Shown here: positions 17,791 through 42,487 of the stretch, piece after piece
Layout of the letters: each line of letters starts with the position of its first letter
Numbering within the stretch: position 1 is the first letter of the stretch
Assembly (NCBI GenBank): GCA_003556385.1
Contig: PWRA01000113.1
Location: forward strand, 1 to 49,887
Length of the DNA: 49,887 bases
Direction: 5' to 3'
Source of the DNA: Dehalococcoidia bacterium
Lineage (GTDB): Bacteria; Chloroflexota; Dehalococcoidia; GIF9; AB-539-J10
Notes under the pieces: generated by a model
The model's input: the letters and a program-made list of their open reading frames with translations, nothing else
Told to the model about the DNA's origin: nothing
Database searches by the model: none
Made by a program: the position numbers and the translations under genes

Positions 17791-17859
17791 CGAATGTAAT
17801 ACTTTTGTAACTTTTTCTGGCTGCATTTTATGACTTCTTTACCACCTATCCATTACCAT
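17791..17859 (+). promoter_or_regulatory. copy A of a 4-member AT-rich promoter module (upstream block, ATGACT, 18 nt, TACCAT), upstream of the ABC-transporter operon
   Basis: cgAATGTAATACTTTTGTAACTTTTTctggctgcATTTT ATGACT (17830-17835), an 18-nt spacer, then TACCAT (17854-17859). Aligns position-for-position with the copies at 28653, 28575(-) and 42419(-). Confidence 0.6.
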
Positions 17860-17925
17860 GGTACTGAACCTTAGCGCGGCAGCCAAGGGGGATGAACCGG
17901 CAAAGAGAGAAAGGAGGTCCTGCCT

Positions 17926-17976
17926 ATGGTAGTAGAAGGTAACAGACGAAGAAGGGGTGATGAGGGGCGGTTGTAG
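17926..17976 (+). other. 16-codon upstream ORF (MVVEGNRRRRGDEGRL) with a strong SD in the leader of the ABC operon
   Basis: GAAAGGAGGT at 17909-17918, ATG at 17926, TAG at 17974-17976. The position of the SD relative to the promoter is conserved with copy B. Translation is unproven. Confidence 0.3.
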
Positions 17977-18023
17977 GAACGACAGGCAAACAAGTAGGAA
18001 CGAAATTCAAAGGAGGAGAAACA

Positions 18024-19238
18024 GTGAAGAATAGAGTATTCTTTGTTGCGTTGGCACTGGTCCTGGCTCTGAGCCTGGCCGGTCTCGGCTGTCCTGATCC
18101 AATAGAACCCGAGCCCGAGCTTACGGTCTATACCCTATGGACGGAGGAGGCGGAGAGACAGGCCTTTAACGCCGTTCTGGCCGAGTTCGAGGACCAGACG
18201 GGCATTCAGGTAACACACACGGCGGTGGACACGGACACCATGTTGGTCACTTTCCCCACGGCCTTCGCGGCGGGCACTTCGCCCGCGGATGTGGTCCTGG
18301 CACCTTGGTCTGCCTGGATCGTCGACCTCAGCGGCCACCTGCTGCCGGTGGGCGAACTGCTTGACGAAGACGAGTTCACCGCGGCCCACCTGGATCCGGT
18401 GACGGAGGCCGGACAGTTGTACGGAGCCCCCTTTAAGATGGCCGGCAAGCCGGGCTTCTGGTACAAGCCGTCGTTCTTTGCCACCCACGATCTGACACCG
18501 CCTGCTACATATGATGAGTTCGTGGAGCTGTTGGCCGACCTCGATGAGATACCCGAGTTGGAAGCCCCCATTGCCAGTGGTAATGGTGTGGGCTGGCCGC
18601 TCTCCGACCAGGTAGAGGGCTTCATAATCGGCCTAGGAGGATACCAACTGCAGTTGGACCTTATCCAGGGCACGGTGGCCTGGACGGATGACGTGGTGAG
18701 AGAGGACGTATTCGGCCCCCTGGTGGATCTGCTCGAGGCAGGTTACTTCAGTGTGCCCGACGAATGGGGAACACAGGTGGAGCAGCTCGACGCTGAGGTA
18801 TACGGCATGATGTGGATGGGCGACTGGATAATCGGCATGGTCGAAGACTCCGACGATATAGACTTCTTCCCGTTCCCGCAGACGGATGGCGTCGTCGGAG
18901 CAATCGACTATGCTATCGTAACCGAGTACACAGACTGGCCCGACGAAGCCCGGGAACTGGTCAGCTTTCTGGCCACCAGCGAGGCACAGGAGATATGGGC
19001 TGAGATAGGCGGTTACCTGGCGCCCAACGCGGAGGTCCCACTGGACATATACCCGCCAGCCGCCCGGTCGGTGGCAGAGTTTATGCTGACAGTCACCGTT
19101 GTTCCGGACCTGGACGACACCATCGGAGGGGCATTCCAGTCAACCTTCTGGGACCAGCTTAAGCTACTGTGGGTTAACCCCGATCTGGTGGACGACGTGC
19201 TCGAGGAAATAGAGGAAGACGCGCCGCAACCCGCGTAG
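18024..19238 (+). CDS. ABC transporter extracellular solute-binding lipoprotein (family 1, sugar-type), 404 aa
   Basis: GTG start with AAAGGAGGAG upstream. Signal peptide plus lipobox LSLAGLGC. Acidic SBP-like sequence followed by two MalF/MalG-type permease genes. Confidence 0.8.
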   Translation: MKNRVFFVALALVLALSLAGLGCPDPIEPEPELTVYTLWTEEAERQAFNAVLAEFEDQTGIQVTHTAVDTDTMLVTFPTAFAAGTSPADVVLAPWSAWIVDLSGHLLPVGELLDEDEFTAAHLDPVTEAGQLYGAPFKMAGKPGFWYKPSFFATHDLTPPATYDEFVELLADLDEIPELEAPIASGNGVGWPLSDQVEGFIIGLGGYQLQLDLIQGTVAWTDDVVREDVFGPLVDLLEAGYFSVPDEWGTQVEQLDAEVYGMMWMGDWIIGMVEDSDDIDFFPFPQTDGVVGAIDYAIVTEYTDWPDEARELVSFLATSEAQEIWAEIGGYLAPNAEVPLDIYPPAARSVAEFMLTVTVVPDLDDTIGGAFQSTFWDQLKLLWVNPDLVDDVLEEIEEDAPQPA

Positions 19239-19250
19239 TGCGCAAGAACT

Positions 19251-19338
19251 CGGTGCGGGGGCGGTTGCCTGAACGCCTCCGCACCGGTCCAATAGTCTGG
19301 ACCTGGCCCTGGTCTTTGGGTCTGAGAGGGGCAGACCC
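19251..19338 (+). promoter_or_regulatory. two intercistronic stem-loops between the SBP and permease genes
   Basis: CGGTGCGGGGG (19251-19261) pairs with CCTCCGCACCG (19276-19286) with 1 mismatch. GGGTCTG (19318-19324) pairs with CAGACCC (19332-19338). No U-tract follows, so these are more likely mRNA stabilizing or attenuating hairpins than a full terminator. Confidence 0.35.
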
Positions 19339-19393
19339 TGCGGTCTGATCTCGCAAATGCAGCAGAGCTTTTCTGTGAAAAGGGGACAACGAC

Positions 19394-20266
19394 ATGCGTA
19401 GGCTGATATTCATCCTACCGGCGCTTATCCTGGTCGCCTTAATAGTGATCTTTCCGGCCGCCGAGACAATACGCTGGAGCTTCTGGGGGTGGGACCGGCT
19501 GGAGATGACTGAATTCGTCGGGTTCGACAACTACGAGCGGCTTTTCGGCAGTAGATCGTTCATCAATATGGCCCGGTTCCCGACCCAGAATCCACCGTGG
19601 GGGGCCCTGATTCACAACATCGTGTGGGTGATAGTCTTCATCCCTCTCACCGCATTGCTCGGTCTGTTCCTGGCTGTTCTGCTCAGGGAGGTCAAAGGCG
19701 GGTCCATAATCAAGTCCATGATCTTCATAGGGATGGTGGTCCCGCTGGTTGTGGGTGGGATGATAATCCGTTTCGTGTTCGACGGGAGGGCGGGAATAGT
19801 AAACGCCGCGCTGCGCACCGTCGGGCTGGATGATCTTGCACGTACCTGGACGGCCTTCCCGGATACTGCCCTGCTTTCACTGATACTGGGCTCGGTCTGG
19901 ATCTGGACCGGTTTTGCCATGATAATCTACTCCGCCGGCCTGGAGCTCATATCGAAGGACCTGTACGAGTCGGCCAGTGTGGACGGCGCCTCACCGTGGC
20001 GAACGTTCCGCAGGATAACCATCCCTATGGTCAAACCTGCCACCCTGATTGTGGTCGTCATGAACCTGATATACGTACTGAGGATCTTCGATATCGTCTA
20101 TGTCGCGACCCGGGGTGGTCCCGGCGGCGCCTCCAGTGTCCTGGCTTTCCAGGGTTACCTCTTTGCCTTTCAGCAACGCGAGTGGGGAATGGCCTCGGCA
20201 GTCTTCACCTTTCTGACCCTTGCTGCCGCCATCATCAGCGTGGTCCTGGTAAGAAGGGTGAAATAA
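19394..20266 (+). CDS. carbohydrate ABC transporter permease (MalF/UgpA-like), 290 aa
   Basis: Multiple TM segments and the EAA-loop region LYESASVDGASPWRTFRRITIPM. Confidence 0.9.
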   Translation: MRRLIFILPALILVALIVIFPAAETIRWSFWGWDRLEMTEFVGFDNYERLFGSRSFINMARFPTQNPPWGALIHNIVWVIVFIPLTALLGLFLAVLLREVKGGSIIKSMIFIGMVVPLVVGGMIIRFVFDGRAGIVNAALRTVGLDDLARTWTAFPDTALLSLILGSVWIWTGFAMIIYSAGLELISKDLYESASVDGASPWRTFRRITIPMVKPATLIVVVMNLIYVLRIFDIVYVATRGGPGGASSVLAFQGYLFAFQQREWGMASAVFTFLTLAAAIISVVLVRRVK

Positions 20267-21093
20267 TGAAGAGGCCGAGGATCATTCTATATGTCATCGC
20301 CTGGCTCATCGGTATCATCTGGGTGCTGCCCTTTTTCGGGGTATTCGTCACGTCCGTGAGGCCTTTTGGTGAGGTAGTTGACGGCTGGTGGCAGCTGGAA
20401 GAGTTCACCCTTACCCTGGACGCATTCCGACAGGCCTGGAATCATCCGGATGCTCCCGTAGGCCCCGCCCTCTTGAACTCCCTCTCCATAGCCATTCCCG
20501 CCACCATACTGACCATCATCCTTGCTTCGCTGGCAGCCTATGCCTTTGCCAGGTTCGAGTTCCGGCTTAAGGGTCCCCTCTTCTCCCTCCTGATAATCAT
20601 TATGGCGATGCCGGGCCAGTCGATCATCATCCCTCTGTTTGCCCATATGATCACCCTGGGGCTCATCGATACCCGGCTAGGGCTTATCCTGATTCACACA
20701 GCCTGGGGAATACCCTGGGCGGTATTGTTCTTGAGAAACTTCTTCCTCAGCGTTCCCATCGACCTGGAGGAATCCGCCCGCGTGGATGGGGCTTCCGATC
20801 TGACGGTCTTCCGCCGCATAGTCCTGCCCATAGCCCTGCCAGCCATAGTCTCCATCGCCGTCCTGCAATTCGTCTGGGTGTGGAATGACTTCCTCTTCGC
20901 CCTGATCGTCATATTGTCCCCAGACAAGAAAGTAGTGACCCAGACCATCCCGCTGCTAAGGGGTAGATTCGACATCCCCTGGAGCGTGCTTAGTGCCGCC
21001 TCGGTGCTGGGCATGATTATCCCCCTACTAGTATTTGTGTTTCTCCAGAGGTATTACATAAAGGGGGTGATGGCCGGCGCGATAAAGGGTTAG
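20266..21093 (+). CDS. carbohydrate ABC transporter permease (MalG/UgpE-like), 275 aa
   Basis: ORF 19996..21093 trimmed to ATG 20266, which overlaps the upstream stop (TAATG). EAA loop LEESARVDGASDLTVFRRIVLPI. Typical C-terminus QRYYIKGVMAGAIKG. Confidence 0.9.
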   Translation: MKRPRIILYVIAWLIGIIWVLPFFGVFVTSVRPFGEVVDGWWQLEEFTLTLDAFRQAWNHPDAPVGPALLNSLSIAIPATILTIILASLAAYAFARFEFRLKGPLFSLLIIIMAMPGQSIIIPLFAHMITLGLIDTRLGLILIHTAWGIPWAVLFLRNFFLSVPIDLEESARVDGASDLTVFRRIVLPIALPAIVSIAVLQFVWVWNDFLFALIVILSPDKKVVTQTIPLLRGRFDIPWSVLSAASVLGMIIPLLVFVFLQRYYIKGVMAGAIKG

Positions 21094-27113: not shown

Positions 27114-28496
27114 CTACACACCAACCGGAATAAGTATCGGCCCGCCGGCCGGCACCGGCTCCGGGGATTGCGGAGCTTCCGGCAACAGATGAGTCCTCAC
27201 CGGCACCTGCGGAATACCCTGCATGGAGGCCTGGAGCCCCGTCTTCTCGATCAGGTTCCTGATGACCTCCGTCCAGACAAACCGCCTCGCCGTATGCCGC
27301 CCCGCGCTGCGTATCCCATTCTCCTGCTCTGCGTGGCCACTCAGGTAGTCCACGTAGGCCTCGATCTCAGCCGGATCGTCGGTCTCCAGGACAATCGAGT
27401 TATGGAGATGGATCGCGTAGTCCTCCCCGGTGCCACCGGTGAACGCAACTCCCCCGGCGGCCATAGTCTCCAGGCCGACAAGACCAAAGGGCTCGTGAGT
27501 GCTGTTCGCCAGCACGGCATCCGAGGAGTGATACAGCATACTCAGCAGGCGCGGCATGCAGTGAGACTTGAAGTTCAGAACGTCCGCTTCACCGCTTCTG
27601 CCAATAGCATCTAAAGCGGCCTGCTCACCTTGTCCGGTTGCCCAGACGTCCTTCACAATCAAACCAAGTTGCCTGGCCATAAGCATCACCTCCTCACCAA
27701 AGGGCTCTATACCACCTCTGGCCAGAAGGACCGTCTTCCTGCCACCGCGATTGAGCCTCGCCGTCGCCTCCACGGCCTGAAGCCAACCCTTGGTAGGATC
27801 ATACCGCGCGACCTTCGTCAGCAGAAGGTCCGCGCCGAGCTGCTTCTTGAGCCGAGCGGCCGCCCCATCGCCAGCATCGATTAGTGCGGCCTCGGGTATC
27901 CCGTTGGGGATGACGAGCGGGTTCACTCCCAACTCGCGCATGATATATTTCATGTACCGGCTTACAGTAGTGATCGTTGCATTACCTGTCAGGCGCGGCC
28001 AGTCTATACGGTCGAATCCAAACGTGTTATTGGCATTCCAGAAGATCACCACCCTGTCCCTGAGTCCGAGATCCCGAAGCTGTTCGCTCAACTGACAGAC
28101 GGCCTCAGCCGTGTGCCACTCTTCGCTCTGAATGACCACCAGTTTGTCCTCGCTCAGCGCGGGCTTCACCAGGCGTTCGATGACGAAGGGGGGAATAGAG
28201 CGGCTGTAATCATTGACCTTATCGCCCTCTCCATGATATACGCCGCTGGGGTAGTATTCACTGATCCACTGGCACCAGCGATGGAGGATCAGCTTCTCCT
28301 CGCTCATGAACTCTTCACCGCTTAGCCTCGGATCACCGACAAAGAAAAGGTGGGTCGGGAACCCCATGCCCGCCAGAGCCTGACACAGGTTGGCTATCCT
28401 GGTTCCCAGACCCCCGGCCAGAGAGTACGGGTCGGGGCCTTCAAACGAGAGTAGCACAAACAAGCTGTTGTCCCCAGCGATATCCATCTGCCTCAT
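27114..28496 (-). CDS. GT4-family (GT-B fold) glycosyltransferase, 460 aa
   Basis: ORF 27114..28604 trimmed to ATG 28496; the track start ATG at 28604 is the ATGACT -35 box of promoter copy D. N-terminal FEGPDPYSLAGGLGTRI nucleotide-sugar GT motif. C-terminal EPFGLVGLETMAAG (E-x7-E) motif. Confidence 0.8.
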   Translation of the reverse strand: MRQMDIAGDNSLFVLLSFEGPDPYSLAGGLGTRIANLCQALAGMGFPTHLFFVGDPRLSGEEFMSEEKLILHRWCQWISEYYPSGVYHGEGDKVNDYSRSIPPFVIERLVKPALSEDKLVVIQSEEWHTAEAVCQLSEQLRDLGLRDRVVIFWNANNTFGFDRIDWPRLTGNATITTVSRYMKYIMRELGVNPLVIPNGIPEAALIDAGDGAAARLKKQLGADLLLTKVARYDPTKGWLQAVEATARLNRGGRKTVLLARGGIEPFGEEVMLMARQLGLIVKDVWATGQGEQAALDAIGRSGEADVLNFKSHCMPRLLSMLYHSSDAVLANSTHEPFGLVGLETMAAGGVAFTGGTGEDYAIHLHNSIVLETDDPAEIEAYVDYLSGHAEQENGIRSAGRHTARRFVWTEVIRNLIEKTGLQASMQGIPQVPVRTHLLPEAPQSPEPVPAGGPILIPVGV

Positions 28497-28574
28497 GATG
28501 AGATTTCTCCTCTCCCGCACACCTTTACCACCCGACGCCTGCGAACTGCCCGTTGGTGAGGATTTGTTAAGTGA

Positions 28575-28643
28575 ATTGTAAGGGACACAGCATGGCAAAG
28601 TCATAAAACGGGGATGGGAAATATTACAAAACTATAACATCGG
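28575..28643 (-). promoter_or_regulatory. copy D of the promoter module, driving the GT4 operon
   Basis: Minus strand: ccgATGTTATAGTTTTGTAATATTTcccatccccgTTTT ATGACT (28604-28599), an 18-nt spacer, TACAAT (28580-28575). Confidence 0.6.
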
Positions 28644-28652
28644 CCCGGGCTG

Positions 28653-28721
28653 AAAATGTCACACTTTTGTGATTTTTTGCCTGCCCATTTTATGACTTCT
28701 TTATCACCCGTCGACTATCAT
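28653..28721 (+). promoter_or_regulatory. copy B of the promoter module, back-to-back with copy D
   Basis: AAAATGTCACACTTTTGTGATTTTTTgcctgcccATTTT ATGACT (28692-28697), an 18-nt spacer, TATCAT (28716-28721). Confidence 0.6.
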
Positions 28722-28788
28722 AGTCGGACACCTGAACCTCGGGGAGCGGGACGACGGTAGAGCTAAGAGGCGAAAGGAGGTGCTATCT

Positions 28789-29250
28789 GTGGCGAGAAAG
28801 GCTGGAAGCCCGGGATAGGTTTGGTGAACCGGAGACCAGATGGGGAGTTGGGTGAGAGCGAACAGACAGGCAACGTCTCCGGCATGAAGCTTTTGCCCGC
28901 AGTGTCGAGGCGCATTCCAGCAACAGGGGATGAGGTAGACGGGCGCCATAGATGCATAGAGGAGGAGGACACGTTCATGGTGAACGATGATCTTCAAGGA
29001 CTAAGAGAAGAGGACGTGGGTATCTCGGTTGTTGAGGGGACGGCTTTGGACGAACGGAGGACCGAGACTGAGGGGAAAACCGGAGAGGACGGGTACTACT
29101 ATAGTGCACGTGCTTACGGTGGAGTCTGCCACTCTGTAGCTATACCTGTCGACTTCGATGCCGGAAGATTCAGGCCAGCTACGGGCCTGGGGTCCTGTAG
29201 ATCAGCGCCTGCACACACGGACGGGCTCGACCAAGGGGGTTCCCGGTTTC
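28789..29250 (+). pseudogene. decayed small heat-shock protein (Hsp20/alpha-crystallin)-like gene; boundaries approximate
   Basis: The frame of ORF 28821..29405 reads ...LVNRRPDGELGES...EEEDTFMVNDDLQGLREEDVGISVVEGTAL....EDGYYYSARAYGGVCHSVAIPVDFDAGRF. This is in register with the Hsp20 consensus (DPF.EL; DLPG...EDI.ISV..G.L.I.GE...; YY..ER.YG.F.RS..LP..VD...I.A). Many conserved hydrophobic positions are replaced. The only SD-linked start (GTG 28789) is in another frame and stops after 9 codons. The frame then runs about 50 codons past where sHSPs normally end. Confidence 0.4.
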
Positions 29251-29462
29251 GGCTGCAAAGAGGCGAAGGCAGGCCAGCAACCGATCGGGCCCCGGCGTCC
29301 CGCTTCCCGATCCCGGCGGCGTATGTTGCCACCCGTAGACACGGTATCGCACGGTGCTTAAGGCACAAGGCAGCCGGAACGACTACCCGGCGGACTAGCT
29401 CTTGAGAATCGCCCGCACGCAGGACGCCAGACACGAGGAACGCTCACACAAAGGAGGTTGCT

Positions 29463-29912
29463 ATGCAAAGCACAGGAGTACCGGCGCTTGACACGACGAT
29501 TCAGAAGACCAACATCTGGCTGAAGGAAGTCATGGATGAACTCAGCTCGGACGACCGTCGTAGAGCCTACCTGGCTCTTCGTTCGACACTACACACACTA
29601 CGCGACCGGCTTACGGTAGAAGAAGCCACCGACCTGGGAGCCCAGCTGCCTATGCTCATTCGTGGTTTCTACTACGAGGGCTGGAACCCAGCCGGCAAGC
29701 CGGTTAAGTTCGACAGGGATGAATTCCTGTTGCACGTCCGCGAGCATTTCGCCGAGGAGCCGGAGATAGACGGAGCCGGGATTACACAGGCCGTCTTTAA
29801 GATACTCGAGCAGCATATCACGAACGGAGAAATCGAGGACGTGAAGTCTCATCTACCGAAGGACCTGAAGGAATTCTGGGAGAGCATTCGTGGTTCCGGC
29901 GAGGCCCGCTAG
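29463..29912 (+). CDS. DUF2267 domain protein, 149 aa
   Basis: AAAGGAGG lies upstream. A.L...L..LR.RL...EA..L.AQLP.L.RG.YYEGW.P is the DUF2267 pattern. Confidence 0.7.
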   Translation: MQSTGVPALDTTIQKTNIWLKEVMDELSSDDRRRAYLALRSTLHTLRDRLTVEEATDLGAQLPMLIRGFYYEGWNPAGKPVKFDRDEFLLHVREHFAEEPEIDGAGITQAVFKILEQHITNGEIEDVKSHLPKDLKEFWESIRGSGEAR

Positions 29913-30052
29913 AGCATAAGCCGCACGAGGGAAGGTAGAAATAGCCGGCGCCAATGTGATAAAACTACCGCATCACCTGTCAGCGTGCCAGTCACAGGGA
30001 ACATGATTGAACTGCACGTATACAGATAGAAAGAGAAGGAGGTATTGCTCTT

Positions 30053-31507
30053 ATGAAGGACAGCGACGCTAGACCCACAACCAACGATGCGGGTATTCCC
30101 GTGTCAAGCGAGGAGTTTTCCCTTACCGTGGGACCGGATGGCCCCGTCCTGCTTCAAGATCACTATCTTATGGAGCAGATGGCCAACTTCAACCGGGAGA
30201 TGATTCCGGACCGCCAGCCCCATGCCAAGGGCTCCGGGGCCTTCGGACACTTGGAGGTGTCCCGGGACGTCAGCGCGTACACCAGGGCGGCAGTATTCCA
30301 GCCGGGCACCAGGACCGAGGTTCTGGCCCGGTTCTCCACGGTGGCCGGTGAGAGCGGCAGCCCCGACACCTGGCGGGACGTACGCGGCTTCGCGCTCAAG
30401 TTCTACACGAGCGAGGGGAACTACGACATGGTGGGGAATAACACCCCGGTCTTCTTTGTGCGCGACCCGATGAAGTTCCAGCATTTCATCCATTCCCAGA
30501 AGCGCCGGGCGGACAGCGGCCTGCGCGATCATGACATGCAGTGGGACTTCTGGACGCTGTCGCCCGAGTCGGCCCATCAAGTCACCATCCTGATGAGCGA
30601 CCGCGGAGTCCCCAGGAGCTACCGCCACATGAACGGCTACACCAGCCACGCCTACATGTGGGTTAACGCCAAAGGCGAGCGCTTCTGGGTGAAATACCAC
30701 TTTAAGACCGACCAGGGCATCGAAAACCTCACTCAAGAGGAGGCCGACCGGATCGCCGGTGAGGATGCTGACTATCACCGCCGCGATCTGTTTGATGCGA
30801 TCAATCGGGGGGAGTCTCCCAGCTGGACGCTGAAAGTACAGATCATGCCCTTTAAGGAGGCTGAGACATACCGGTTCAACCCCTTTGATCTTACCAAGGT
30901 CTGGTTCCACGCCGACTACCCACTTCACGAGGTGGGCCGGCTGACCCTGGACCGCAACCCCGGCGACTTTCACAGTGAGATCGAGCAGGCCGCGTTCGAG
31001 CCCAACAACCTTGTTCCTGGCATCGGCGCCAGCCCGGACAAGATGCTGCTCGCCCGGCTGGTTTCCTACGCCGACGCCCACCGGGCACGCCTGGGTGTCA
31101 ACTACAAGCAGATTCCGGTCAACCGGCCGAGGACCCCGATACACAGCTACAGCAAGGGCGGTGTGATGCGGATCCAGAATGTCTCTGACCCGGTCTATGC
31201 ACCCAACTCAAAGGGCGGCCCCAAAGCCGACCCGGCGCAGTACCCGGAAGACGCCGTATGGAGTGCCGACGGTGACTTTGTGCGCGCCGCCTACACCAAG
31301 CGCAAGGACGACGACGATTTCGGACAGGCGGGAGCTCTGGTGCGCAGGGTCATGGATGATACCAGGCGTGACCTGCTGGTATCCAATGTGGTAGGGCACC
31401 TGAAGAAGGGCGTTTCCGAGCCCGTGCTGCAGCGCGTTTTTGAGTACTGGCGCAATATCGACAGGGAGACCGGCGATCGCATTGCCAGTGGTATGCGAGC
31501 GAGTTGA
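30053..31507 (+). CDS. katA: monofunctional heme catalase (small-subunit clade), 484 aa
   Basis: [49 protein letters not shown], and the proximal Tyr region RL.SY.DAHR.RLG.NY. Confidence 0.95.
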
Positions 31508-33444: not shown

Positions 33445-36400
33445 CTACTTGCATGGTATCAGCCGCACCGTGTCCTTCTCCTCGAGCACCTGCGCCAGCG
33501 CCGACACAGTCTCCTCTATCTCCTCCTCCGTAGTGTAGCGGCTCAACGAGAACCGTACCGCGCAGTGCGCGTCTTCCTCAGTTCTGCCCATAGCGAGAAG
33601 GACGTGGGTGGGCTCCGGAGAGCCCGACCGGCATGCCGAGCCCGAAGACAGCGAAACGCCCCGCTGGTCGAGCATTATGACAAGCGACTCGCCGCGCAGG
33701 CCGGGGAAGGTCAGGTTGAGCGTGTTGGGCAGCCTGTACTTCGGGTGGCCATTCAGTCGCACCCCGGGCACCAGCCGTCTCACGCCTTCCTCCAGTCTGT
33801 TCCGCAGACCTCGTACGCGATCAGCCTCCGACAGGGCGAAGGCCGCTAGCTCAGCCGCCTTGCCCAGCCCAACCGCGCCGGGGATGTTTTCGGTGCCCGC
33901 CCGTATCCCGCCTTCCTGTTTGCCTCCATGAACAAGCGGCTCCAGATGGATGCCCTTCGCGACGTACAGTGCACCTATTCCCTTGGGCCCATGTAGCTTG
34001 TGCCCCGAAATGCTCAGCATGTCTACCCCTAGTTCCTCAACATCCACGCCTGTCTTGCCGACCGCCTGGATAGCATCGGTGTGGAAAAGCACCCCGCTCT
34101 CGTGACAAACAGCGCTCAACTCTCTGATCGGCAGGATCGTGCCGGTCTCATTATTGGCCATCACAATACTAACCAGGACCGTGTGGGCGTCGAGGGCGGC
34201 CCGGAGCGTGGCAGGGTCAAGCCAGCCGTTGCTGTCTACCTCAAGGTACGTAATGCTGTAGCCCAGTCTTTCCAGAAACCGACAGGTTTCCATCACCGCC
34301 GGGTGCTCCACGGTTGTTGTCACGATGTGTCTGCCCCTATGACGCAGGGCGAAAGCGGCTCCCTTGATGGCCAGGTTATTGGACTCAGAGCCTCCGCCCG
34401 TGAAGACCAGACTCCTCGGTCGGGCGTTGATAAGCGCGGCCACCTGACGGCGCGCATGCTCCAGGGCATCCCTGGCCACGAGACCCGAAGCATGTATGCT
34501 GGACGGATTCCCCGCCTCGACACCAAGGTACGGGATCATGGCGTCGCGCACCGCGTCAGCGACCTGCGTCGTGGCGTTGTTATCAAGATATATGCGCCTC
34601 GCCGGCCTGGTTGGCCCTGCGACCGCGCTCAACGCACACTCCTCCCCTAATGCGGGCCGACTGCCCACTGCGCAGCAGGTCTCGTCGGTACCGGACTCGA
34701 CTCTTTCCACGTCGCACAGCAAAGCCTTGTACACCGGAAAGCCGGAGATCTTGTCGTAGTTACCCAGGTCGGTGAGTTCATTCACATTCCACTTCTGCCA
34801 CGCCTCGGGACCGACAGGCGTTCCACCGCCGAACATGCACTCTACACATCCCCTCATGATGTCCCCGGTCACCCTGGCCCGGAAGGGCACGCTTCCCCTG
34901 GCACTCTTAACCCGAACCAGGTCGCCATTCCGGATACCCCTTGCCGCTGCATCCTCGGAGTTGATCTCTACCAGCGGTTCGGGTGTGTCCCGGACCAATC
35001 CTTCGATACCATGGTGCTGAGACCTGAAATCAGTCTGCGGTCTGGCGCCGGAGTTAAAGACCAGCGGAAACCTCTCTGCCAGCTTCGGACTGCCCAGGGG
35101 GCCTTCGGTTGGCTCGATATACACAGGTAACGGCTCATAGCCGTACCCCTCCAATATCGTAGACCATATCTCGAATTTTCCCGTCGGTGTCTCGAACCCC
35201 ATTCTGCCGTCCTTCCGCAGTCTACCCTTCTCCCACTTCCTGTACTCCAGCATAGGTGTCGAACGCCTTACCCAGCCACCGGCCCGCTTTACGTCCTCCA
35301 GACTGTATCCCGAGTCCTTAAGAACATAGCGGAGCATGTCCTCCTCAGTCTGTGGGAACAGATGGCCGTAGCCCAGGTGCATAGCCAGCTCGGCCATTAT
35401 CAAATAGTCGTTGCGTGCCTCGCCCAACGGCTCGATAACCCTCTCACGCAGCCGGAAAACGGGACCGTAGGTCATATACGAGTCGTTTTCGAACATCGTG
35501 GTGGCCGGCAAAACGATGTCGGCGTAGGCAGCATCGGCCGTGAGCTGGCGATCGATGCAGACCACAAAGTCGAGTCCGGCGAGTGTATCTCTCCACACCG
35601 GCGTCTGCGGCCACGACGTCAGCAGGGAAGCCCCGTGAATGATCAGCCCGCGCGTCCGGTACGGGTGTCCTTTCAGCACAGAATCGACGAGGGCGATGGC
35701 GTGCGACTCTCCCCGATAGTCGCTGTACACTGGAAAATCGCGACGCCCGATGGCCATGTCCAGATTCGGATTCTCCAGGTTGCACGCACGATTGATGGGA
35801 AACTCGCTATCCAGCATGGTAAGCCCGATGCCGCCCGGCACATCGAGATGACCGGCCAGGGCGAACAGGGTCAGAGCCGCCCTGGCAGACTGAACGCCGC
35901 TGTTGGAATATTCCAGGCCGGTGTACATGAGCAGCGCAGCACCCCTGGCCCTGGCGATGCGCCGGGCCAGATCTCTGATCCGGTCCGCCGAAATCCCCGT
36001 TATGGTCTGCACCACGTCAGGCCTGAAGTGCTGAACGTACCTCCTCAGTTCATCAAAGCAATGACACCAGTTCTCGGCGAACTCCTCATCGTAGAGGTCC
36101 TCGTCCACAATGACCTCTATCATGCTCAAGGCCAGAGCGCCATCGGTGCCCGGCCGGATCGGAATCCACTCGCCACCGGTGCGCACCACCGCCTCCGTAC
36201 GGCGTGGGTCGATGAAGACGATGTCCGCACCGCGCCCGGCTGCCATCTCCAATCGCGACATGTCCGCAGGGGGTGAATCGGTGGCCGGGTTAGTGCCCCA
36301 GACCACCACCATGCCGGAGTTCTCGATGTCGGCAAACATGTTCATCTGCATTCTCCCCATGGTCACATGAGGAGCGATCATGTGCAGCGAGACGTAACAC

Positions 36401-36837
36401 AGGGCGCCAACGCCTGTTGTGTTCATAGACCCGAACGGGAACAGCACATTAGAGGCCGAAGACACGGCTACGCCTTTAGGCTGGTACATATCGCACAGCG
36501 ACAGTTCCTGGGCGCCACGACCCGTATAGATGCATACGGCCTCCGGCCCCGACTCTTCTCTGATCTCGAGTATACTATCGGTGATGGTCCTGTACGCCTC
36601 CTGCCAGGAAATACGCTGGAAATCGTACGATCCCCGGGGTCCGACCCGCCTTAGAGGATGCAGAATCCGGTGTCTGGAGTAGACTATCTCCGGTGCATGC
36701 TCTCCCCGCCGACAGATCATACCCAGCGTATGGGTGTCATCGGCCCTTATTTCAACCAGCCTGCCACCCACAAGGCCGACCTCCACCCAGCAACCCGCCG
36801 GACATACGCCACAGAGAGCCTTCCGCCACTCGACCAT
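33445..36837 (-). CDS. fusion protein: N-terminal bis-pterin (Mo/W) oxidoreductase module plus C-terminal class V PLP cysteine desulfurase (NifS/IscS-like). Candidate metallopterin-dependent ergothioneine synthase.
   Basis: ORF 33445..36984 (1179 aa). The start is uncertain and is placed at ATG 36837 (MVEWRKALCGVCPAGC), just before the MopB-type C-x2-C-x3-C...C cluster motif. About 750 aa of MopB-family sequence follow, including a C-terminal pterin-binding barrel (INSEDAAARGIRNGDLVRVKSARG). Then comes RIYLDNNATT...SGHKLHGPKG (PLP Lys)...SSGSAC (persulfide Cys). Confidence 0.75.
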   Translation of the reverse strand: MVEWRKALCGVCPAGCWVEVGLVGGRLVEIRADDTHTLGMICRRGEHAPEIVYSRHRILHPLRRVGPRGSYDFQRISWQEAYRTITDSILEIREESGPEAVCIYTGRGAQELSLCDMYQPKGVAVSSASNVLFPFGSMNTTGVGALCYVSLHMIAPHVTMGRMQMNMFADIENSGMVVVWGTNPATDSPPADMSRLEMAAGRGADIVFIDPRRTEAVVRTGGEWIPIRPGTDGALALSMIEVIVDEDLYDEEFAENWCHCFDELRRYVQHFRPDVVQTITGISADRIRDLARRIARARGAALLMYTGLEYSNSGVQSARAALTLFALAGHLDVPGGIGLTMLDSEFPINRACNLENPNLDMAIGRRDFPVYSDYRGESHAIALVDSVLKGHPYRTRGLIIHGASLLTSWPQTPVWRDTLAGLDFVVCIDRQLTADAAYADIVLPATTMFENDSYMTYGPVFRLRERVIEPLGEARNDYLIMAELAMHLGYGHLFPQTEEDMLRYVLKDSGYSLEDVKRAGGWVRRSTPMLEYRKWEKGRLRKDGRMGFETPTGKFEIWSTILEGYGYEPLPVYIEPTEGPLGSPKLAERFPLVFNSGARPQTDFRSQHHGIEGLVRDTPEPLVEINSEDAAARGIRNGDLVRVKSARGSVPFRARVTGDIMRGCVECMFGGGTPVGPEAWQKWNVNELTDLGNYDKISGFPVYKALLCDVERVESGTDETCCAVGSRPALGEECALSAVAGPTRPARRIYLDNNATTQVADAVRDAMIPYLGVEAGNPSSIHASGLVARDALEHARRQVAALINARPRSLVFTGGGSESNNLAIKGAAFALRHRGRHIVTTTVEHPAVMETCRFLERLGYSITYLEVDSNGWLDPATLRAALDAHTVLVSIVMANNETGTILPIRELSAVCHESGVLFHTDAIQAVGKTGVDVEELGVDMLSISGHKLHGPKGIGALYVAKGIHLEPLVHGGKQEGGIRAGTENIPGAVGLGKAAELAAFALSEADRVRGLRNRLEEGVRRLVPGVRLNGHPKYRLPNTLNLTFPGLRGESLVIMLDQRGVSLSSGSACRSGSPEPTHVLLAMGRTEEDAHCAVRFSLSRYTTEEEIEETVSALAQVLEEKDTVRLIPCK

Positions 36838-37065
36838 TGTATGATTCGGGTCAGAGGCGCCTGGGATTTCCTCCGGAGGTCTGTGCATTCTTCCCATATA
36901 GTAACAGCAAGGGCAGGTCATCCTCAATCTCTTTGGTCGGCACATAGCCGGGGTTCGATGACGGAGAGGAGGGAGCGGGGGCAAGACACAGGCAGGCTAC
37001 ATCGACTATAATGGGATGGCAATGGGCAGCAACCGCCCACCCGGCTGTGCGGAACCTTAAAGAGT

Positions 37066-39158: not shown

Positions 39159-40472
39159 TCAGGGGGACGTCCTGTCGACCGTAAAGAGGTTCACCAGGTC
39201 GACGGTGTCGACAACGTTCAGCTTCCGGAAGAGCAGCGAAAAGCGCTCTTCCAGAATCTGCCTCATGCCCGCCAGTCTATCCTCAGGAATGTTCCACATC
39301 TCCTCTTTGAAGAGACCGAAGCCCTTCTTACGCGTGCTGTACAGAAACTGCTCGTCTGTGTCTCCGGGCTTCTTTTCGTCTGCATACCTTCGGCGGATCT
39401 CTTCATAGATGCGCTCCAGCAGGTCGTTCGGGAAAAAGCCGCCATCATATATCAGGTTCTGGAATCCAGTGGCCAGGTGCACTTCTGCCGTCCCTGCATC
39501 CGGGAACATCTCGAACGCCTCGTCCGGCAAAGTCGAGGCGCCGTGCTGCACGGCCCCCGCCAGCCCGTACTCATCTCGGGCCACCCTTGAGATCTCGCGG
39601 AGCGCCTCGAAATCGATCTCCACCTCGGCCATCGATCCGTCCGGCAGAACCACACCCCCATGCTTCGTCCCGGTCTGAACGCTGATCTTGGAGATGCCGG
39701 ACGTCTCGGACCCCAGATGCCGGAGGTACCCGGACATGAACGCTCTCAGGTCACCCACGGTGCTGTTCCTGCCGCCGACCTCTCCGATCTCACCGCCCAC
39801 CGAGATGGTGACTCCCCCCGGCTCGATGCCGCGAATCAAGCGGGTCATGTCGCCGGTTACCCGGCAGTTTATCTCCTGCTGCTCCTCGAGCGTCTCCCGT
39901 TCCAGGTCGACGAGGGTAGAGGCGTCGACATCGATGTTCAGGAAGCCGGCAAAGACCGCCCCCTTAATCAGGTCACTGACGGCCTTCAACTCCGCCTGTG
40001 AATCCGAGGCATACTTGCCGCTGCTGAACTGAAAATGGTCTCCTTGAAGGAAAACAGGCCCACTGAAACCTTCCCTGACCGCCGCGGCCAGGACGCACGA
40101 GGCATACTCGGCCGGCGACTGGTCGGTATAGCCGATCTCAGAGCGGGCGATTTCAAATATGAAGGCGCCTACCTTGTGCTTCAGGGCGGCCCGGAAGACG
40201 GCCCTTGCCACCTGATAGGTGATACCGCGGATATTTATCGCCGGGACGGTCTTAGAGACGTAGAGCCCGTTGCCGGCAGCGGTGTACAGGCCGTGAGTGC
40301 TCGCCAGACAGATATCCTGCTTGCGCGCAGACTCGCGAATCGTCTTCCGGGCCCTCTCTCTGTCCGACTTCCCGGGAGAAAAGACGGCGCCGTACACAAC
40401 GGCGTCCATATCGCCGGGCGGCACACCCTTCTTCTCGACATCCCCGCCCCGTCTCTCGTCATCATGCTTCAT
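39159..40472 (-). CDS. fba: class II (metal-dependent) fructose/ketose-bisphosphate aldolase family protein, long form, 437 aa
   Basis: ORF 39159..40952 trimmed to ATG 40472 (GGAGGAGGG 5 nt upstream); the upstream 160 codons overlap pfk out of frame. Motifs VFLQGDHF, GGEIGEVGG, VQTGTKHGG and VQHGASTLPDE....F.....AEVHLATGFQN match class II aldolases. Confidence 0.7.
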   Translation of the reverse strand: MKHDDERRGGDVEKKGVPPGDMDAVVYGAVFSPGKSDRERARKTIRESARKQDICLASTHGLYTAAGNGLYVSKTVPAINIRGITYQVARAVFRAALKHKVGAFIFEIARSEIGYTDQSPAEYASCVLAAAVREGFSGPVFLQGDHFQFSSGKYASDSQAELKAVSDLIKGAVFAGFLNIDVDASTLVDLERETLEEQQEINCRVTGDMTRLIRGIEPGGVTISVGGEIGEVGGRNSTVGDLRAFMSGYLRHLGSETSGISKISVQTGTKHGGVVLPDGSMAEVEIDFEALREISRVARDEYGLAGAVQHGASTLPDEAFEMFPDAGTAEVHLATGFQNLIYDGGFFPNDLLERIYEEIRRRYADEKKPGDTDEQFLYSTRKKGFGLFKEEMWNIPEDRLAGMRQILEERFSLLFRKLNVVDTVDLVNLFTVDRTSP

Positions 40473-41592
40473 GCTTTCCCTCCTCCAGCCTGAGTATCGT
40501 CCGCCGTCCGTTATATCTCTCCACGTCATACTGCGTATCGACATCAACAAATCTGGCCCGCCCGATAGCATTTTCAATAGCGCACATAGTGACTCTTCCG
40601 TTGCGGACGCAGACCATTTTGCCGAAGATGCCTGCCGCCACAAGCTCCATCGCAGCGATGCCGAAGTACCTGCCCATTCTCCTATCGTAGGCACAGGGAG
40701 CACCACCCCGCTGAAGGTGGCTGAGGTTGATGCTACGCGTCTCCAGTCCGGTCGAGGCCTCGATCTCCCGGGCCAGAGAATCTCCGACACCTCCCAGGAA
40801 CTTATGCCCAAAGGCATCGACGCCTTCCTGTCTGGTAAACTCGGTGCCGCCTGCCGGCTTTGCGCCCTCAGAAACCACGATGATCTCGTATCTGGCTCCC
40901 TCTTCTCTTCCCTCGACAAGAAGTTCATTGACTCTGTCCGGAGAAAAATCATGTTCCGGGATGAGGATTATAAAGGCACCGCTCGCTTCGCCCCCCTCCA
41001 AGGCCAACCAGCCGCCATGCCTGCCCATGGTCTCCACAACGAATATTCTCTTGTGCGAACCCGCCGTGGTACGCAGGCGGTCGATCTCTTCAGTGATGAC
41101 GCTAACTGCCGTCTCGAATCCGAGCGTATAATCGGTCTCGGGCAGGTCCTTGTCGATGGTCTTGGGTATGGCGACCACCGGCACGCCCTCACGGTCCAAC
41201 CTGTGGGCGACTCCCAGCGTGTCATCGCCGCCGATCGCTATCAGTGCGTCCAGTCGCAGCTTCTCGATGTTGGCCAACACCCTCCGGGACTGGTCGTTCT
41301 TCGGATCGTAGGGATTGGTCCGCGACGTACCTAGCATGCTGCCACCGTACCTATCCCACGTCCGGACGACGGCCTGGTCCAGCGGCATGACGTACTCTTC
41401 CATGCCTGCTGCGCCGGGCTTGACTTCAATGAGTCCCTTCCATCCGTCCTTGATGCCCACCGGCGTATATCGGGTCATCCTTTCTCGCTGCAGCCGATCA
41501 TCAAGCGCCGTCTTCACTATCCATTTAATGGCGGGATTAATGCCGGCGCAGTCCCCTCCCCCGGTCAGGATACCTATCCTGTTCTCTTTCAT
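40462..41592 (-). CDS. pfp: 6-phosphofructokinase, predicted PPi-dependent type, 376 aa
   Basis: RIGILTGGGDCAGINPAI. The IGGDDTLG (Asp rather than Gly) and IPKTIDKDL (Lys rather than Gly) positions are the known discriminators of PPi- versus ATP-dependent PFKs. Start placed at ATG 41592 (GAGGAGG 9 nt upstream). The stop overlaps the fba start by 11 nt. Confidence 0.8.
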   Translation of the reverse strand: MKENRIGILTGGGDCAGINPAIKWIVKTALDDRLQRERMTRYTPVGIKDGWKGLIEVKPGAAGMEEYVMPLDQAVVRTWDRYGGSMLGTSRTNPYDPKNDQSRRVLANIEKLRLDALIAIGGDDTLGVAHRLDREGVPVVAIPKTIDKDLPETDYTLGFETAVSVITEEIDRLRTTAGSHKRIFVVETMGRHGGWLALEGGEASGAFIILIPEHDFSPDRVNELLVEGREEGARYEIIVVSEGAKPAGGTEFTRQEGVDAFGHKFLGGVGDSLAREIEASTGLETRSINLSHLQRGGAPCAYDRRMGRYFGIAAMELVAAGIFGKMVCVRNGRVTMCAIENAIGRARFVDVDTQYDVERYNGRRTILRLEEGKHEA

Positions 41593-41660
41593 GTCCATCA
41601 ACCTCCTCAGTTCCCGTAACGAACGTCGGTCGTGATCTCCTGCACACTCCGCCTATACCG

Positions 41661-41666
41661 ATTATA
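41661..41666 (-). promoter_or_regulatory. possible -10 box (TATAAT) upstream of pfp
   Basis: Minus strand ...TTAAGAtcggtttgatcaggatgcTATAATcgg, about 68 nt upstream of the pfp ATG. The -35 is weak. Confidence 0.3.
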
Positions 41667-41953
41667 GCATCCTGATCAAACCGATCTTAAGCTGCCGCGT
41701 ACTGCGTGAACAGAATACCTCTCCAACCTGCGGCCGGATCCAGCTTCTCCCCGGAGTCGCCATGGTGTACGCCCCCGCAGCGTTCCAGATCTCGCGGATA
41801 GGTACACGGCCATCCAGGGATTGGGTCCGGACCTGGTTGCACGCTACCGACTGGTGAAAGCCTGAAGAAAAGGACCTGGGTGGATTCAAAATTGGGCAGA
41901 GCTCGACACTGTCCTTCGCCCTTCCGAAACGGGAGTCTCAGCCTTAACAAGCG

Positions 41954-42325
41954 CTAGCGAGCCGCAAGCTCTTCTATCTTCCTCGCCATCTCATCCGGCC
42001 TGAAAGGTTTACTAACAAAGCTGTCAGCGCCCAGGCGTATCGCCCTGTCACGGTTTCCCGGGCTTGCGCTGAAGGCGATCACAGGCAACTGACTGAAAGC
42101 CCGCAGCTGCTTCAACACCTCGCATCCATCCATTTCGGGCATGATGATATCGAGCAGCATGACATCCGGGTTGGCCGTCTTGACAAGATCGAGCGCCTCG
42201 TCGCCAGAGGCAGCCGTAAGGACCTCAAATCCGCGAAGTCTCAGGTCTATCTCCACAAACCTGAGCACCTTCACGTGATCATCGACCACCAGCACGCATG
42301 TCTTTTTTGTTACCTCATTCATCAT
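41954..42325 (-). CDS. stand-alone response-regulator receiver domain (CheY-like), 123 aa
   Basis: VLVVDDH...DVMLLDIIMPEMDG......PVIAFSA......GADSFVSKPF. No output domain. Confidence 0.85.
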   Translation of the reverse strand: MMNEVTKKTCVLVVDDHVKVLRFVEIDLRLRGFEVLTAASGDEALDLVKTANPDVMLLDIIMPEMDGCEVLKQLRAFSQLPVIAFSASPGNRDRAIRLGADSFVSKPFRPDEMARKIEELAAR

Positions 42326-42418
42326 CCGTGCAAAGCCTCACTAGACCGTATTGCGCTACCCGTTTCCAGTTCCTCGACCGAAGATTATATCCCCGTATGC
42401 AAGCGAATTCAAGCACTC

Positions 42419-42487
42419 ATTGTAGCGGCCCGCACATAAAGAAGTCATGGCATTTGGCCGGAAAATGTAACGAAAGTATGACATTTT
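42419..42487 (-). promoter_or_regulatory. copy C of the promoter module, upstream of the response-regulator/pfp/fba genes
   Basis: Minus strand: AAAATGTCATACTTTCGTTACATTTTccggccaaatgcc ATGACT (42448-42443), an 18-nt spacer, TACAAT (42424-42419). Confidence 0.6.

Follow-up and report, generated by a model that had tools for sequence, protein, structure and literature searches.

In a 49,887-nt stretch of DNA from a Dehalococcoidia bacterium (assembly GCA_003556385.1, contig PWRA01000113.1, positions 1 to 49,887; hereafter the window), four copies of a 69-nt promoter module stand upstream of genes for sugar uptake, glycosyl transfer, stress defence and glycolysis. Our analysis indicates that every copy is a composite promoter that depends on an activator and belongs to a general-stress regulon shared throughout the Dehalococcoidia, a reading to which we assign a probability of about 60%. 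The conserved anatomy of the module, its placement between genes, the conserved families of its targets and its linkage to a regulator gene are all observed directly; from these we infer binding, activation, a stress signal and a transcription start.

Re-reading and aligning the sequence placed the copies at the positions and on the strands that an earlier note on this DNA had given them: A at 17791-17859 (+), B at 28653-28721 (+), D at 28575-28643 (-), which stands back to back with B, and C at 42419-42487 (-). No gap is needed to align them over the 69-nt core, in which 41 columns are invariant and cluster in three blocks, and, as had been claimed, all four lie between genes and each is oriented toward one. 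A pattern for the upstream block, ATGTNAYANTTTYGTNAYNTTT, has exactly four matches in the window at zero mismatches (0.02 expected; four were reached in 0 of 100 shuffles) and none at one to three mismatches. Searched with up to two mismatches, a pattern for the core, ATGACTT-N4-A-N12-TAYMAT, still finds just these four sites (0.46 expected). Since both patterns return these four sites only, upstream block and core are strictly coupled in the window. A sequence profile built from 117 relatives and scanned over the window also found only these copies (A, 48.0 bits; B, 51.4; D, 46.5; C, 43.9). A sigma-70-type layout, ATGACT-18-TAYMAT directed at a gene, is present in all four, which bears out the ATGACT box with an 18-nt spacer described earlier. 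The direct repeat upstream of it was also confirmed and takes the form TGTNAY-N5-YGTNAY, with an 11-bp period; it starts 72 nt upstream of the predicted start and is followed by a T-tract.

In copy A, the direct-repeat box ATGTAAT-ACTTT-TGTAAC (-72 to -55) occupies 17794-17811, followed by a linker (17812-17829) with TTTTT beside the box and ATTTT beside the -35 element. These two tracts are possible UP-like sites for the RNA polymerase alpha subunit's C-terminal domain (alpha-CTD) and are 97-100% T in 112 relatives. The -35-like ATGACT lies at 17830-17835 and the -10 element TACCAT at 17854-17859, at the 18-nt spacing found in 90% of relatives, with a predicted start near 17866. The corresponding elements are box 28656-28673, -35 28692-28697, -10 (TATCAT) 28716-28721 and predicted start near 28728 for B; box 28640-28623, -35 28604-28599, -10 (TACAAT) 28580-28575 and predicted start near 28568 for D; and box 42484-42467, -35 42448-42443, -10 (TACAAT) 42424-42419 and predicted start near 42412 for C. 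The boxes of A and D match the WalR/VicR consensus TGTWAH-N5-TGTWAH (PMC4168254) perfectly, whereas those of B and C have two mismatches each.

The relaxed pattern ATGTNAYNNTTTYGTNAY-N18-ATGACTT, in which the -10 box was left unconstrained, was scanned over one genome per GTDB species and matched 111 stretches. All but four of these (107) come from 62 assemblies whose titles read Dehalococcoidia, Dehalococcoidales or Chloroflexota, together with a few that bear other labels but have the same neighbourhoods; the remaining four (Halobacillus, Sulfurimonas, Eremiobacterota and Bacteroidales) are chance matches that lack every other module feature. The neighbourhoods were sampled as 8-kb loci (L numbers below), not as whole genomes, and within these the profile detected about 37 more copies that diverge slightly, in that ATAACT, ATGATT or ATGACTA replaces ATGACT. 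The module stands at orthologous genes in 62 species. Perfect modules together with the Dehalococcoidia-type regulator described below and stress genes were also seen on contigs titled Deltaproteobacteria (L031, L074, L081, L083, L099 and L108), Pirellulales (L058) and Methanomicrobia (L077). These contigs are probably mis-binned or mislabelled, and the motif, as a lineage marker, could serve as a binning check.

The consensus of the relatives is aAATGTCATAgTTTTGTAACTTTTTcc.c....ATTTTATGACTTyk yyAy-N11-TAnAAT. With +1 set as the seventh base after the -10 box, it resolves into TGTCAT (-71 to -66), TGTAAC (-60 to -55), a T5 tract (-54 to -50), a free linker (-49 to -42), ATTTT (-41 to -37), ATGACT (-36 to -31), a near-invariant A (-25) and TAnAAT (-12 to -7). 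Several of these features lie outside the search pattern. TA...T occurs at exactly the 18-nt spacer in 101 of 112 unique matches, compared with 0-11% at other offsets; the four positions before ATGACT are T in 97-100% of the 112 relatives; and the A five nt after ATGACTT is present in 111 of 112. Both T-tracts (-54 to -50 and -41 to -37) are 97-100% conserved, and conservation of the -35 region spans -41 to -24. Box, T-tracts, -35 and -10 are fixed elements, while linker and spacer are free to vary. Counted each on its own, the box lay within a module in 128 of 137 occurrences and the core in 118 of 119, the remainder being degenerate modules. The module region is A/T-rich within DNA of 58% GC.

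Placement of the module is that of a promoter. Only 12 of 146 modules (8%) lie inside open frames of at least 150 codons, compared with 77% of random positions in the same loci, and 138 of 145 modules have a co-directional open reading frame (ORF) of at least 60 aa starting no more than 350 nt away. In six of six genes encoding a small winged helix-turn-helix (wHTH) protein, the start codon begins at the seventh nt past the -10 box, from which their mRNAs would be leaderless and begin at the predicted transcription start.

The link to a particular regulator comes from gene order. E. coli OmpR and RpoD sequences served as tblastn probes for gene location only, and the genes were then characterised with curated models. 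The OmpR probe located a full-length OmpR-family regulator gene in about one quarter of the loci. Twenty-seven regulator genes form one tight orthologous group (65-83% identity), and in 26 of them a module starts 8-92 nt past the 3' end of the regulator gene on the same strand, the 27th being cut by the locus edge. The gene behind this regulator-adjacent module varies (DJ-1, GlgC-like, wHTH, RAM-like, Hsp20 or ferritin); the regulator-module junction is constant. The reverse test, in which contigs were picked by the regulator protein alone, found in four of four populations (P0098, P0019, P0049 and P0041) that the module stands some 35-40 nt beyond the stop codon. A metagenome contig scan with GADDYL[AP]K saturated on this generic peptide and returned regulators of 33-55% identity, which were used as a negative control: none of the 80 metagenomic loci with these non-orthologous OmpR regulators carries a module. 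The recognition helix of the linked regulator, DDVQILRTWISRLR, is almost invariant and the catalytic residues of its receiver domain are intact. The regulator gene's own promoter is a canonical TTGACA-17-TATTAT, and the partner kinase is a divergently transcribed PAS-PAS-HisKA-HATPase protein with an N-terminal MEDS or MASE3-like module. Taken together, the conserved OmpR-family regulator probably binds the module, and the earlier suggestion of a winged-helix response regulator on direct repeats one helical turn apart gains support from this physically linked gene.

Among curated families, the regulator scores best with RpaB, the cyanobacterial regulator of HLR1 sites that works with the Hik33/NblS kinase (224.4 bits), followed by YycF/WalR (194.4) and MtrA (192), all under the cut-offs (330 for the RpaB equivalog NF045944 and 340 for the WalR/YycF equivalog NF040534). 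The RpaB/HLR1 system shares with the module a direct-repeat pair with a TTACA/TGTAA core, a PAS-containing HisKA kinase partner and a redox- or stress-responsive regulon. The position of the site agrees as well: RpaB activates from sites centred at -66 to -45 and represses from -38 to +23 (PMC6525291), and the module box is centred near -63, inside the activating range. Unlike the module, however, HLR1 has a 10-bp period (8+2) rather than one of 11 bp. Moreover, the module targets are general stress genes of non-phototrophic anaerobes and not photosystem or high-light genes, and the module site is rigidly tied to one fixed core promoter, with no sites seen at repressor positions. The WalR/VicR (YycF) system of Firmicutes shares the 11-bp period, and among 112 relatives the box departs from the TGTWAH-N5-TGTWAH consensus (PMC4168254) by zero mismatches in 11, one in 96 and two in five (zero or one in 107). 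WalK is also among the best families for the kinase, but at 178 bits against a cut-off of 725; kinase and regulator are divergent here instead of forming a walRK-yycHIJ operon; and the regulon is one of stress genes, with no cell-wall hydrolase or autolysin-type family in the top 25 families of 138 targets. The solved structures nearest to the regulator in sequence are M. tuberculosis PhoP, RegX3, MtrA, PrrA and RpaA. The actinobacterial MtrA, PhoP and RegX3 are OmpR-family proteins whose sites are direct repeats, spaced at about 11 bp and with a core of the TGTGA/TCACA type, although they have other regulons and kinases and are only about 35-40% identical to the regulator. The regulator falls under both equivalog cut-offs and has a different regulon; it represents an orthologous group akin to RpaB but separate from it, and is most fittingly called a new orthologous member of the RpaB/WalR clade.

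The mechanism that we propose is of an ordinary kind, an OmpR-family two-component regulon. The RpaB/WalR/MtrA-clade regulator, made from its own TTGACA-17-TATTAT promoter, would be phosphorylated under stress by the divergently encoded PAS(/MEDS/MASE3)-HisKA kinase. The phosphorylated dimer would bind the two hexamers head to tail (-72 to -55) and recruit RNA polymerase, with alpha-CTD on the two T-tracts and sigma region 4 on ATGACT, thereby activating an ATGACT-18-TAnAAT core that is predicted to be too weak alone. We regard this core as sub-optimal because, in these genomes, the regulator gene itself has a canonical promoter. In E. coli, the alpha-CTD subsites of UP elements are centred near -52 and -42, and within the activator model the T-tracts near -52 and -39 may provide alpha-CTD with UP-like sites. 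The arrangement recalls class I CRP-type activation in E. coli, in which the activator sits about 62 bp upstream of a weak -35 element with A/T tracts for alpha-CTD near -52 and -40; unlike there, the module half-sites are direct and not inverted, the protein family is another one, and the alpha-CTD contacts of the module are predicted. In the window, the module would switch on a sugar ABC uptake operon (A), a GT4 glycosyltransferase gene (D), a decayed hsp20 followed by DUF2267 and catalase genes (B), and genes for a receiver-only regulator, phosphofructokinase (PFK) and aldolase (C). The -35 region may hold more than a sigma contact: TTTTATGACTT is identical at 9 of 11 positions to the second repeat unit, TTTTGTAACTT, and GTCATA and TATGAC are inverted relative to each other at a distance of 33 bp, making a third regulator contact or an unusual sigma preference at this region possible. 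At L017 7553-7580 (-), three TGTAAC/T hexamers with an 11-bp period abut a TTGACT...TATAAT promoter, which may be a different architecture for the same regulator.

Genes behind the modules were clustered and annotated, with counts given out of 138 downstream genes. The leading families are DJ-1/PfpI (10), Hsp20 (8, intact and in eight other genomes), GlgC-like sugar-1-phosphate nucleotidyltransferases (7), HTH_Crp_2, a CRP-like HTH (6), universal stress proteins (Usp; 5), GT4 glycosyltransferases (5), SDR (4), DUF488 (4), M50-CBS proteases (4) and SOD (3). Further targets include P-type ATPases, ferritin/rubrerythrin, hemerythrin, OpuAC and HisKA_3/NarL-type two-component operons, and the operons behind the regulator-adjacent module run through a small protein, DJ-1, Usp, Usp and desulfoferrodoxin to Hsp20 or CMD. 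In other genomes, too, modules precede homologues of each of the four window targets, among them orthologues of the solute-binding protein (SBP) of unit A in L007 (81% identical to that of the window) and L068, GT4 homologues in L019 and L066, and a CheY-like, receiver-only orthologue in L053. Judged by this gene content, the target set is that of a general stress, oxygen-defence or dormancy programme. The idea of a promoter module that defines a regulon is therefore upheld by its conservation in 62 species, the conserved -10, the recurring gene families and the linked OmpR-family gene, but the scope first given to it was too narrow, in that the four units belong to a much wider, class-wide general-stress set. 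Two families of about 100 aa are the commonest first genes behind modules, one a wHTH consisting only of a CRP-type DNA-binding domain (leaderless and without the R-E-R contacts) and the other a RAM/GYD-like domain (examples at L017:4690-4971, L021:1051-1356, L037:287-559, L112:2453-2743, L065:4112-4417 and L107:139-633). Their fusion in L107 suggests that the two act together. At L103:336-2888 (-) and L048:2022-4559 (-), genes for a CRP/FNR protein with the canonical REVVGR helix, a small 4Fe-4S ferredoxin and a 509-aa RpoD-like sigma factor adjoin modules, and this RpoD-like factor could be a stress (group-2) sigma.

Two well-studied stress regulons have a similar content. The DosR regulon of M. 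tuberculosis includes alpha-crystallin/Hsp20, several Usp, a P-type ATPase, an M50-CBS protease and phosphofructokinase, and the sigma-B regulon of B. subtilis includes catalase, Dps/ferritin, DJ-1/PfpI, SDRs and a sugar-1-phosphate nucleotidyltransferase. The resemblance is in content only, an analogy and not membership: DosR is a NarL-type regulator of the palindrome GGGACT-N2-AGTCCC and sigma-B an alternative sigma factor reading GTTTAA-N12-15-GGGTAT, and both motifs are absent from the module. By analogy only, the module regulon would work like a general stress or dormancy programme. More tentatively, and at odds that we place a little short of even, the data may point to an undescribed, class-wide general stress response of the Dehalococcoidia, serving survival of oxygen or dormancy, in which a single pair of PAS/MEDS kinase and RpaB/WalR-like regulator would be the functional counterpart of sigma-B or DosR. 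The rigid 70-bp layout would then reflect a pre-organised complex of regulator, alpha-CTD and sigma, maybe with a third, inverted half-site in the -35 region, and genes would be recruited by copying of whole hsp20 promoter cassettes, as ahead of the sugar-uptake operon.

Several observations weigh against an OmpR-type activator reading the module. All module matches come from uncultured metagenome-assembled genomes (MAGs), with no named isolate among the species-representative matches. The regulator/kinase pair was not found in the window, in L001 or in L113-L117 (the search covered about 60 kb of the organism), nor was it identifiable among database matches, which were other Dehalococcoidia and not the soda-lake MAGs; Kmv36, the closest relative with data (SBP 81% identical), has the pair. 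Since the regulator gene lies upstream of the module, its link is one of co-localisation and not classic autoregulation, except in L017 and L037. Other regulators are also frequent as targets or neighbours, including CRP/FNR proteins, small wHTH proteins, NarL-type two-component systems and the RpoD-like sigma. Finally, the -35 region is conserved far past the sigma-70 hexamer (ATTTTATGACTT-YKYY-A, with A in 111 of 112), and this extended -35, with box and core never apart, could equally reflect a dedicated sigma factor or a second protein. As to the two exceptions, a weaker module variant, TTTTGTCATA...ACTTTATAACT, at L017 3050-3115 (+) and L037 2180-2118 (-) precedes an isochorismatase-like gene and then the OmpR-family regulator, which could give positive autoregulation in those two genomes.

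These last points bring in the rival readings, of which one holds that a stress-specific group-2 (RpoD-like) sigma factor reads ATTTTATGACTT-N17-TAnAAT and that the upstream block is UP-like or architectural DNA with no regulator site. It would account for the roughly 18 nt of conservation around the -35 element, including the A at -25 in 111 of 112, and for box and core never being apart at an invariant spacing, and a 509-aa RpoD-like gene (below the RpoD cut-off) does lie beside hsp20 and CRP clusters in six loci. We nevertheless consider it unlikely: the -10 element is a standard TAnAAT, ATGACT retains the TGAC core of TTGACA, and the 25 families that the 138 downstream genes match most often include none of sigma factors. 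The conserved G/C positions at -70, -68, -59 and -55 are too far upstream for sigma contact and fit an OmpR-type box, and the regulator-module linkage would be left unexplained. Promoters of the sigma-B, extracytoplasmic function (ECF) and sigma-54 types carry the signatures GTTTAA-N12-15-GGGTAT, GGAAC..CGT and GG-N10-GC, respectively, and none of these is present in the module consensus. The block might instead be bound by another factor, a CRP/FNR-family regulator or an autoregulating small wHTH resembling the CRP DNA-binding domain. In at least six genomes the first gene behind a module encodes an HTH_Crp_2 protein, full-length CRP/FNR proteins with the canonical R-E-x-x-x-R helix lie behind or beside modules in L013, L010, L103 and L048, and AAA-TGTCA-N6-TGTAA-CTTT resembles a 22-bp CRP site, with a left half, AAATGTCAT, that is CRP-like. 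A CRP homodimer, however, recognises the inverted TGTGA-N6-TCACA, whereas the half-sites here are direct and the right half is TGTAA, so a CRP-type palindrome was rejected. A CRP gene adjoins the module in few loci, compared with 26 of 27 for the OmpR-type regulator, and we hold a CRP-type binder quite improbable. The small wHTH was also rejected as the binder, its recognition helix being without the R/E/R residues with which CRP contacts bases.

Nor does the block look like a mere enhancer of a constitutive promoter, that is, a UP element or curved DNA boosting a housekeeping promoter without a dedicated regulator. Phased T-tracts near -52 and -39, where alpha-CTD subsites centre, and the A/T-rich character in 58% GC DNA would fit such a class, but its targets would be expected among rRNA, tRNA or ribosomal-protein genes and are stress genes instead. 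The window tRNA promoter (TTTACA-17-TACAAT) and the regulator's own promoter are without the block, the non-A/T positions of the block are close to invariant, and a sub-optimal -35 and spacer would be odd for a strong constitutive promoter; we hold this very unlikely. Among the three mechanisms that the earlier note had offered, the response-regulator activator is thus favoured, and the pure UP-element class is disfavoured by the conservation of specific G/C positions and by targets that are stress genes, not genes for rRNA or tRNA. There is similarly little to recommend the same regulator acting mainly as a repressor or anti-activator, on a promoter that would be active in its absence and silenced in unstressed cells. 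The closest family, RpaB, does activate as well as repress, but its repression sites lie at -38 to +23 (PMC6525291), whereas the module box near -63 is outside the polymerase footprint and upstream of a weak -35 with an 18-nt spacer. Least credible, with hardly any chance in our view, is repeated or mobile DNA without regulatory meaning, such as miniature inverted-repeat transposable elements or recent duplications. A and B do share extra sequence downstream, and promoter cassettes do get copied, since A carries a duplicated fragment of an hsp20 promoter and leader. Conservation is nonetheless position-specific (box, T-tracts, -35 and -10, with variable linkers), the module occurs at orthologous genes in 62 species and is always upstream of a gene and facing it, and reading the aligned copies revealed no terminal inverted repeats, although no dedicated search for repeats or target-site duplications was run.

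Sediments, aquifers and the subsurface harbour Dehalococcoidia in abundance, most of them uncultured; to our knowledge, almost nothing is known of their gene regulation. A literature search, whose coverage excluded most subscription journals, found no paper on the motif or on a Dehalococcoidia stress regulon. An easily recognised 70-bp promoter with a candidate kinase-regulator pair would offer a direct handle on their stress physiology, and a motif scan would allow the regulon to be read from any MAG and tracked in metatranscriptomes.

The window DNA matches contigs of soda-lake sediment MAGs (GCA_003567995.1, GCA_007123295.1 and JGI 3300000362). Module A has a predicted leader of 158 nt (17866-18023, +) ahead of unit A (18024-21093, +), which encodes an ABC sugar-type SBP (18024-19238) and two permeases (19394-20266 and 20266-21093). 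This leader carries an hsp20-leader remnant, a Shine-Dalgarno (SD) sequence, GAAAGGAGGT (17909-17918), and a 16-codon ORF from ATG 17926 to TAG 17976. The segment 17909-17976 corresponds to the SD and first codons of an hsp20, and the same relic precedes the SBP orthologue of Kmv36 (L007:1375-1449), which suggests that the SBP operon joined the regulon via a copied hsp20 promoter cassette. The first gene of unit B (28782-29405, +) is an hsp20 pseudogene, as its earlier description as an hsp20-like relic had it. It has a strong SD and a GTG start at 28782, followed by an in-frame TAG at 28809 and a decayed alpha-crystallin domain with a scrambled C-terminus that gives no Pfam HSP20 match; its identity to intact Hsp20s is 22-32%, whereas these share about 70-80% mutually. 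Unit B continues (29463-31507, +) with DUF2267 (29463-29912) and catalase (30053-31507). At 90% identity, the catalase falls into a cluster of 1256 proteins whose named members are Deltaproteobacteria, Desulfobacteraceae and Desulfosudaceae (Desulfobacterota), and was probably acquired horizontally in recent times. With its decayed hsp20, captured promoter cassette and probably horizontally acquired catalase, the window displays turnover of the regulon. Unit D (27114-28496, -) is a GT4-family glycosyltransferase gene (460 aa). Unit C (39159-42325, -) comprises a receiver-only response regulator (41954-42325), PFK (40462-41592) and a class II fructose-bisphosphate aldolase (39159-40472). With the receiver domain of the OmpR-family regulator linked to the module, the receiver-only protein shares 48% identity, on account of which it could plausibly be a phosphate sink or feedback element.

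Sequence comparison showed that the similarity of A and B beyond the -10 element is a common hsp20-type leader. A leader element, TGAAYACCT-N6-8-GGGAAGCGGGAC, is conserved in hsp20-type transcripts and a few other targets (L046:1863-1937, L049:2091-2165, L045:2876-2990, L081:4268-4382, L068:5250-5364 and window 28728-28781). An RNA thermometer in the hsp20-type leader of A and B was rejected, as RNAalifold gave no consensus pairs for 12 leaders. Rfam covariance models at gathering score returned four tRNAs only over the window and no RNA family on the modules, and an exact-sequence look-up of three window proteins with uncertain start codons returned no database record. Elsewhere in the window, at 33445-36984 (-), molybdopterin-oxidoreductase domains and a class-V aminotransferase (cysteine-desulfurase-like) domain are fused in one large ORF, called as 1108 aa.

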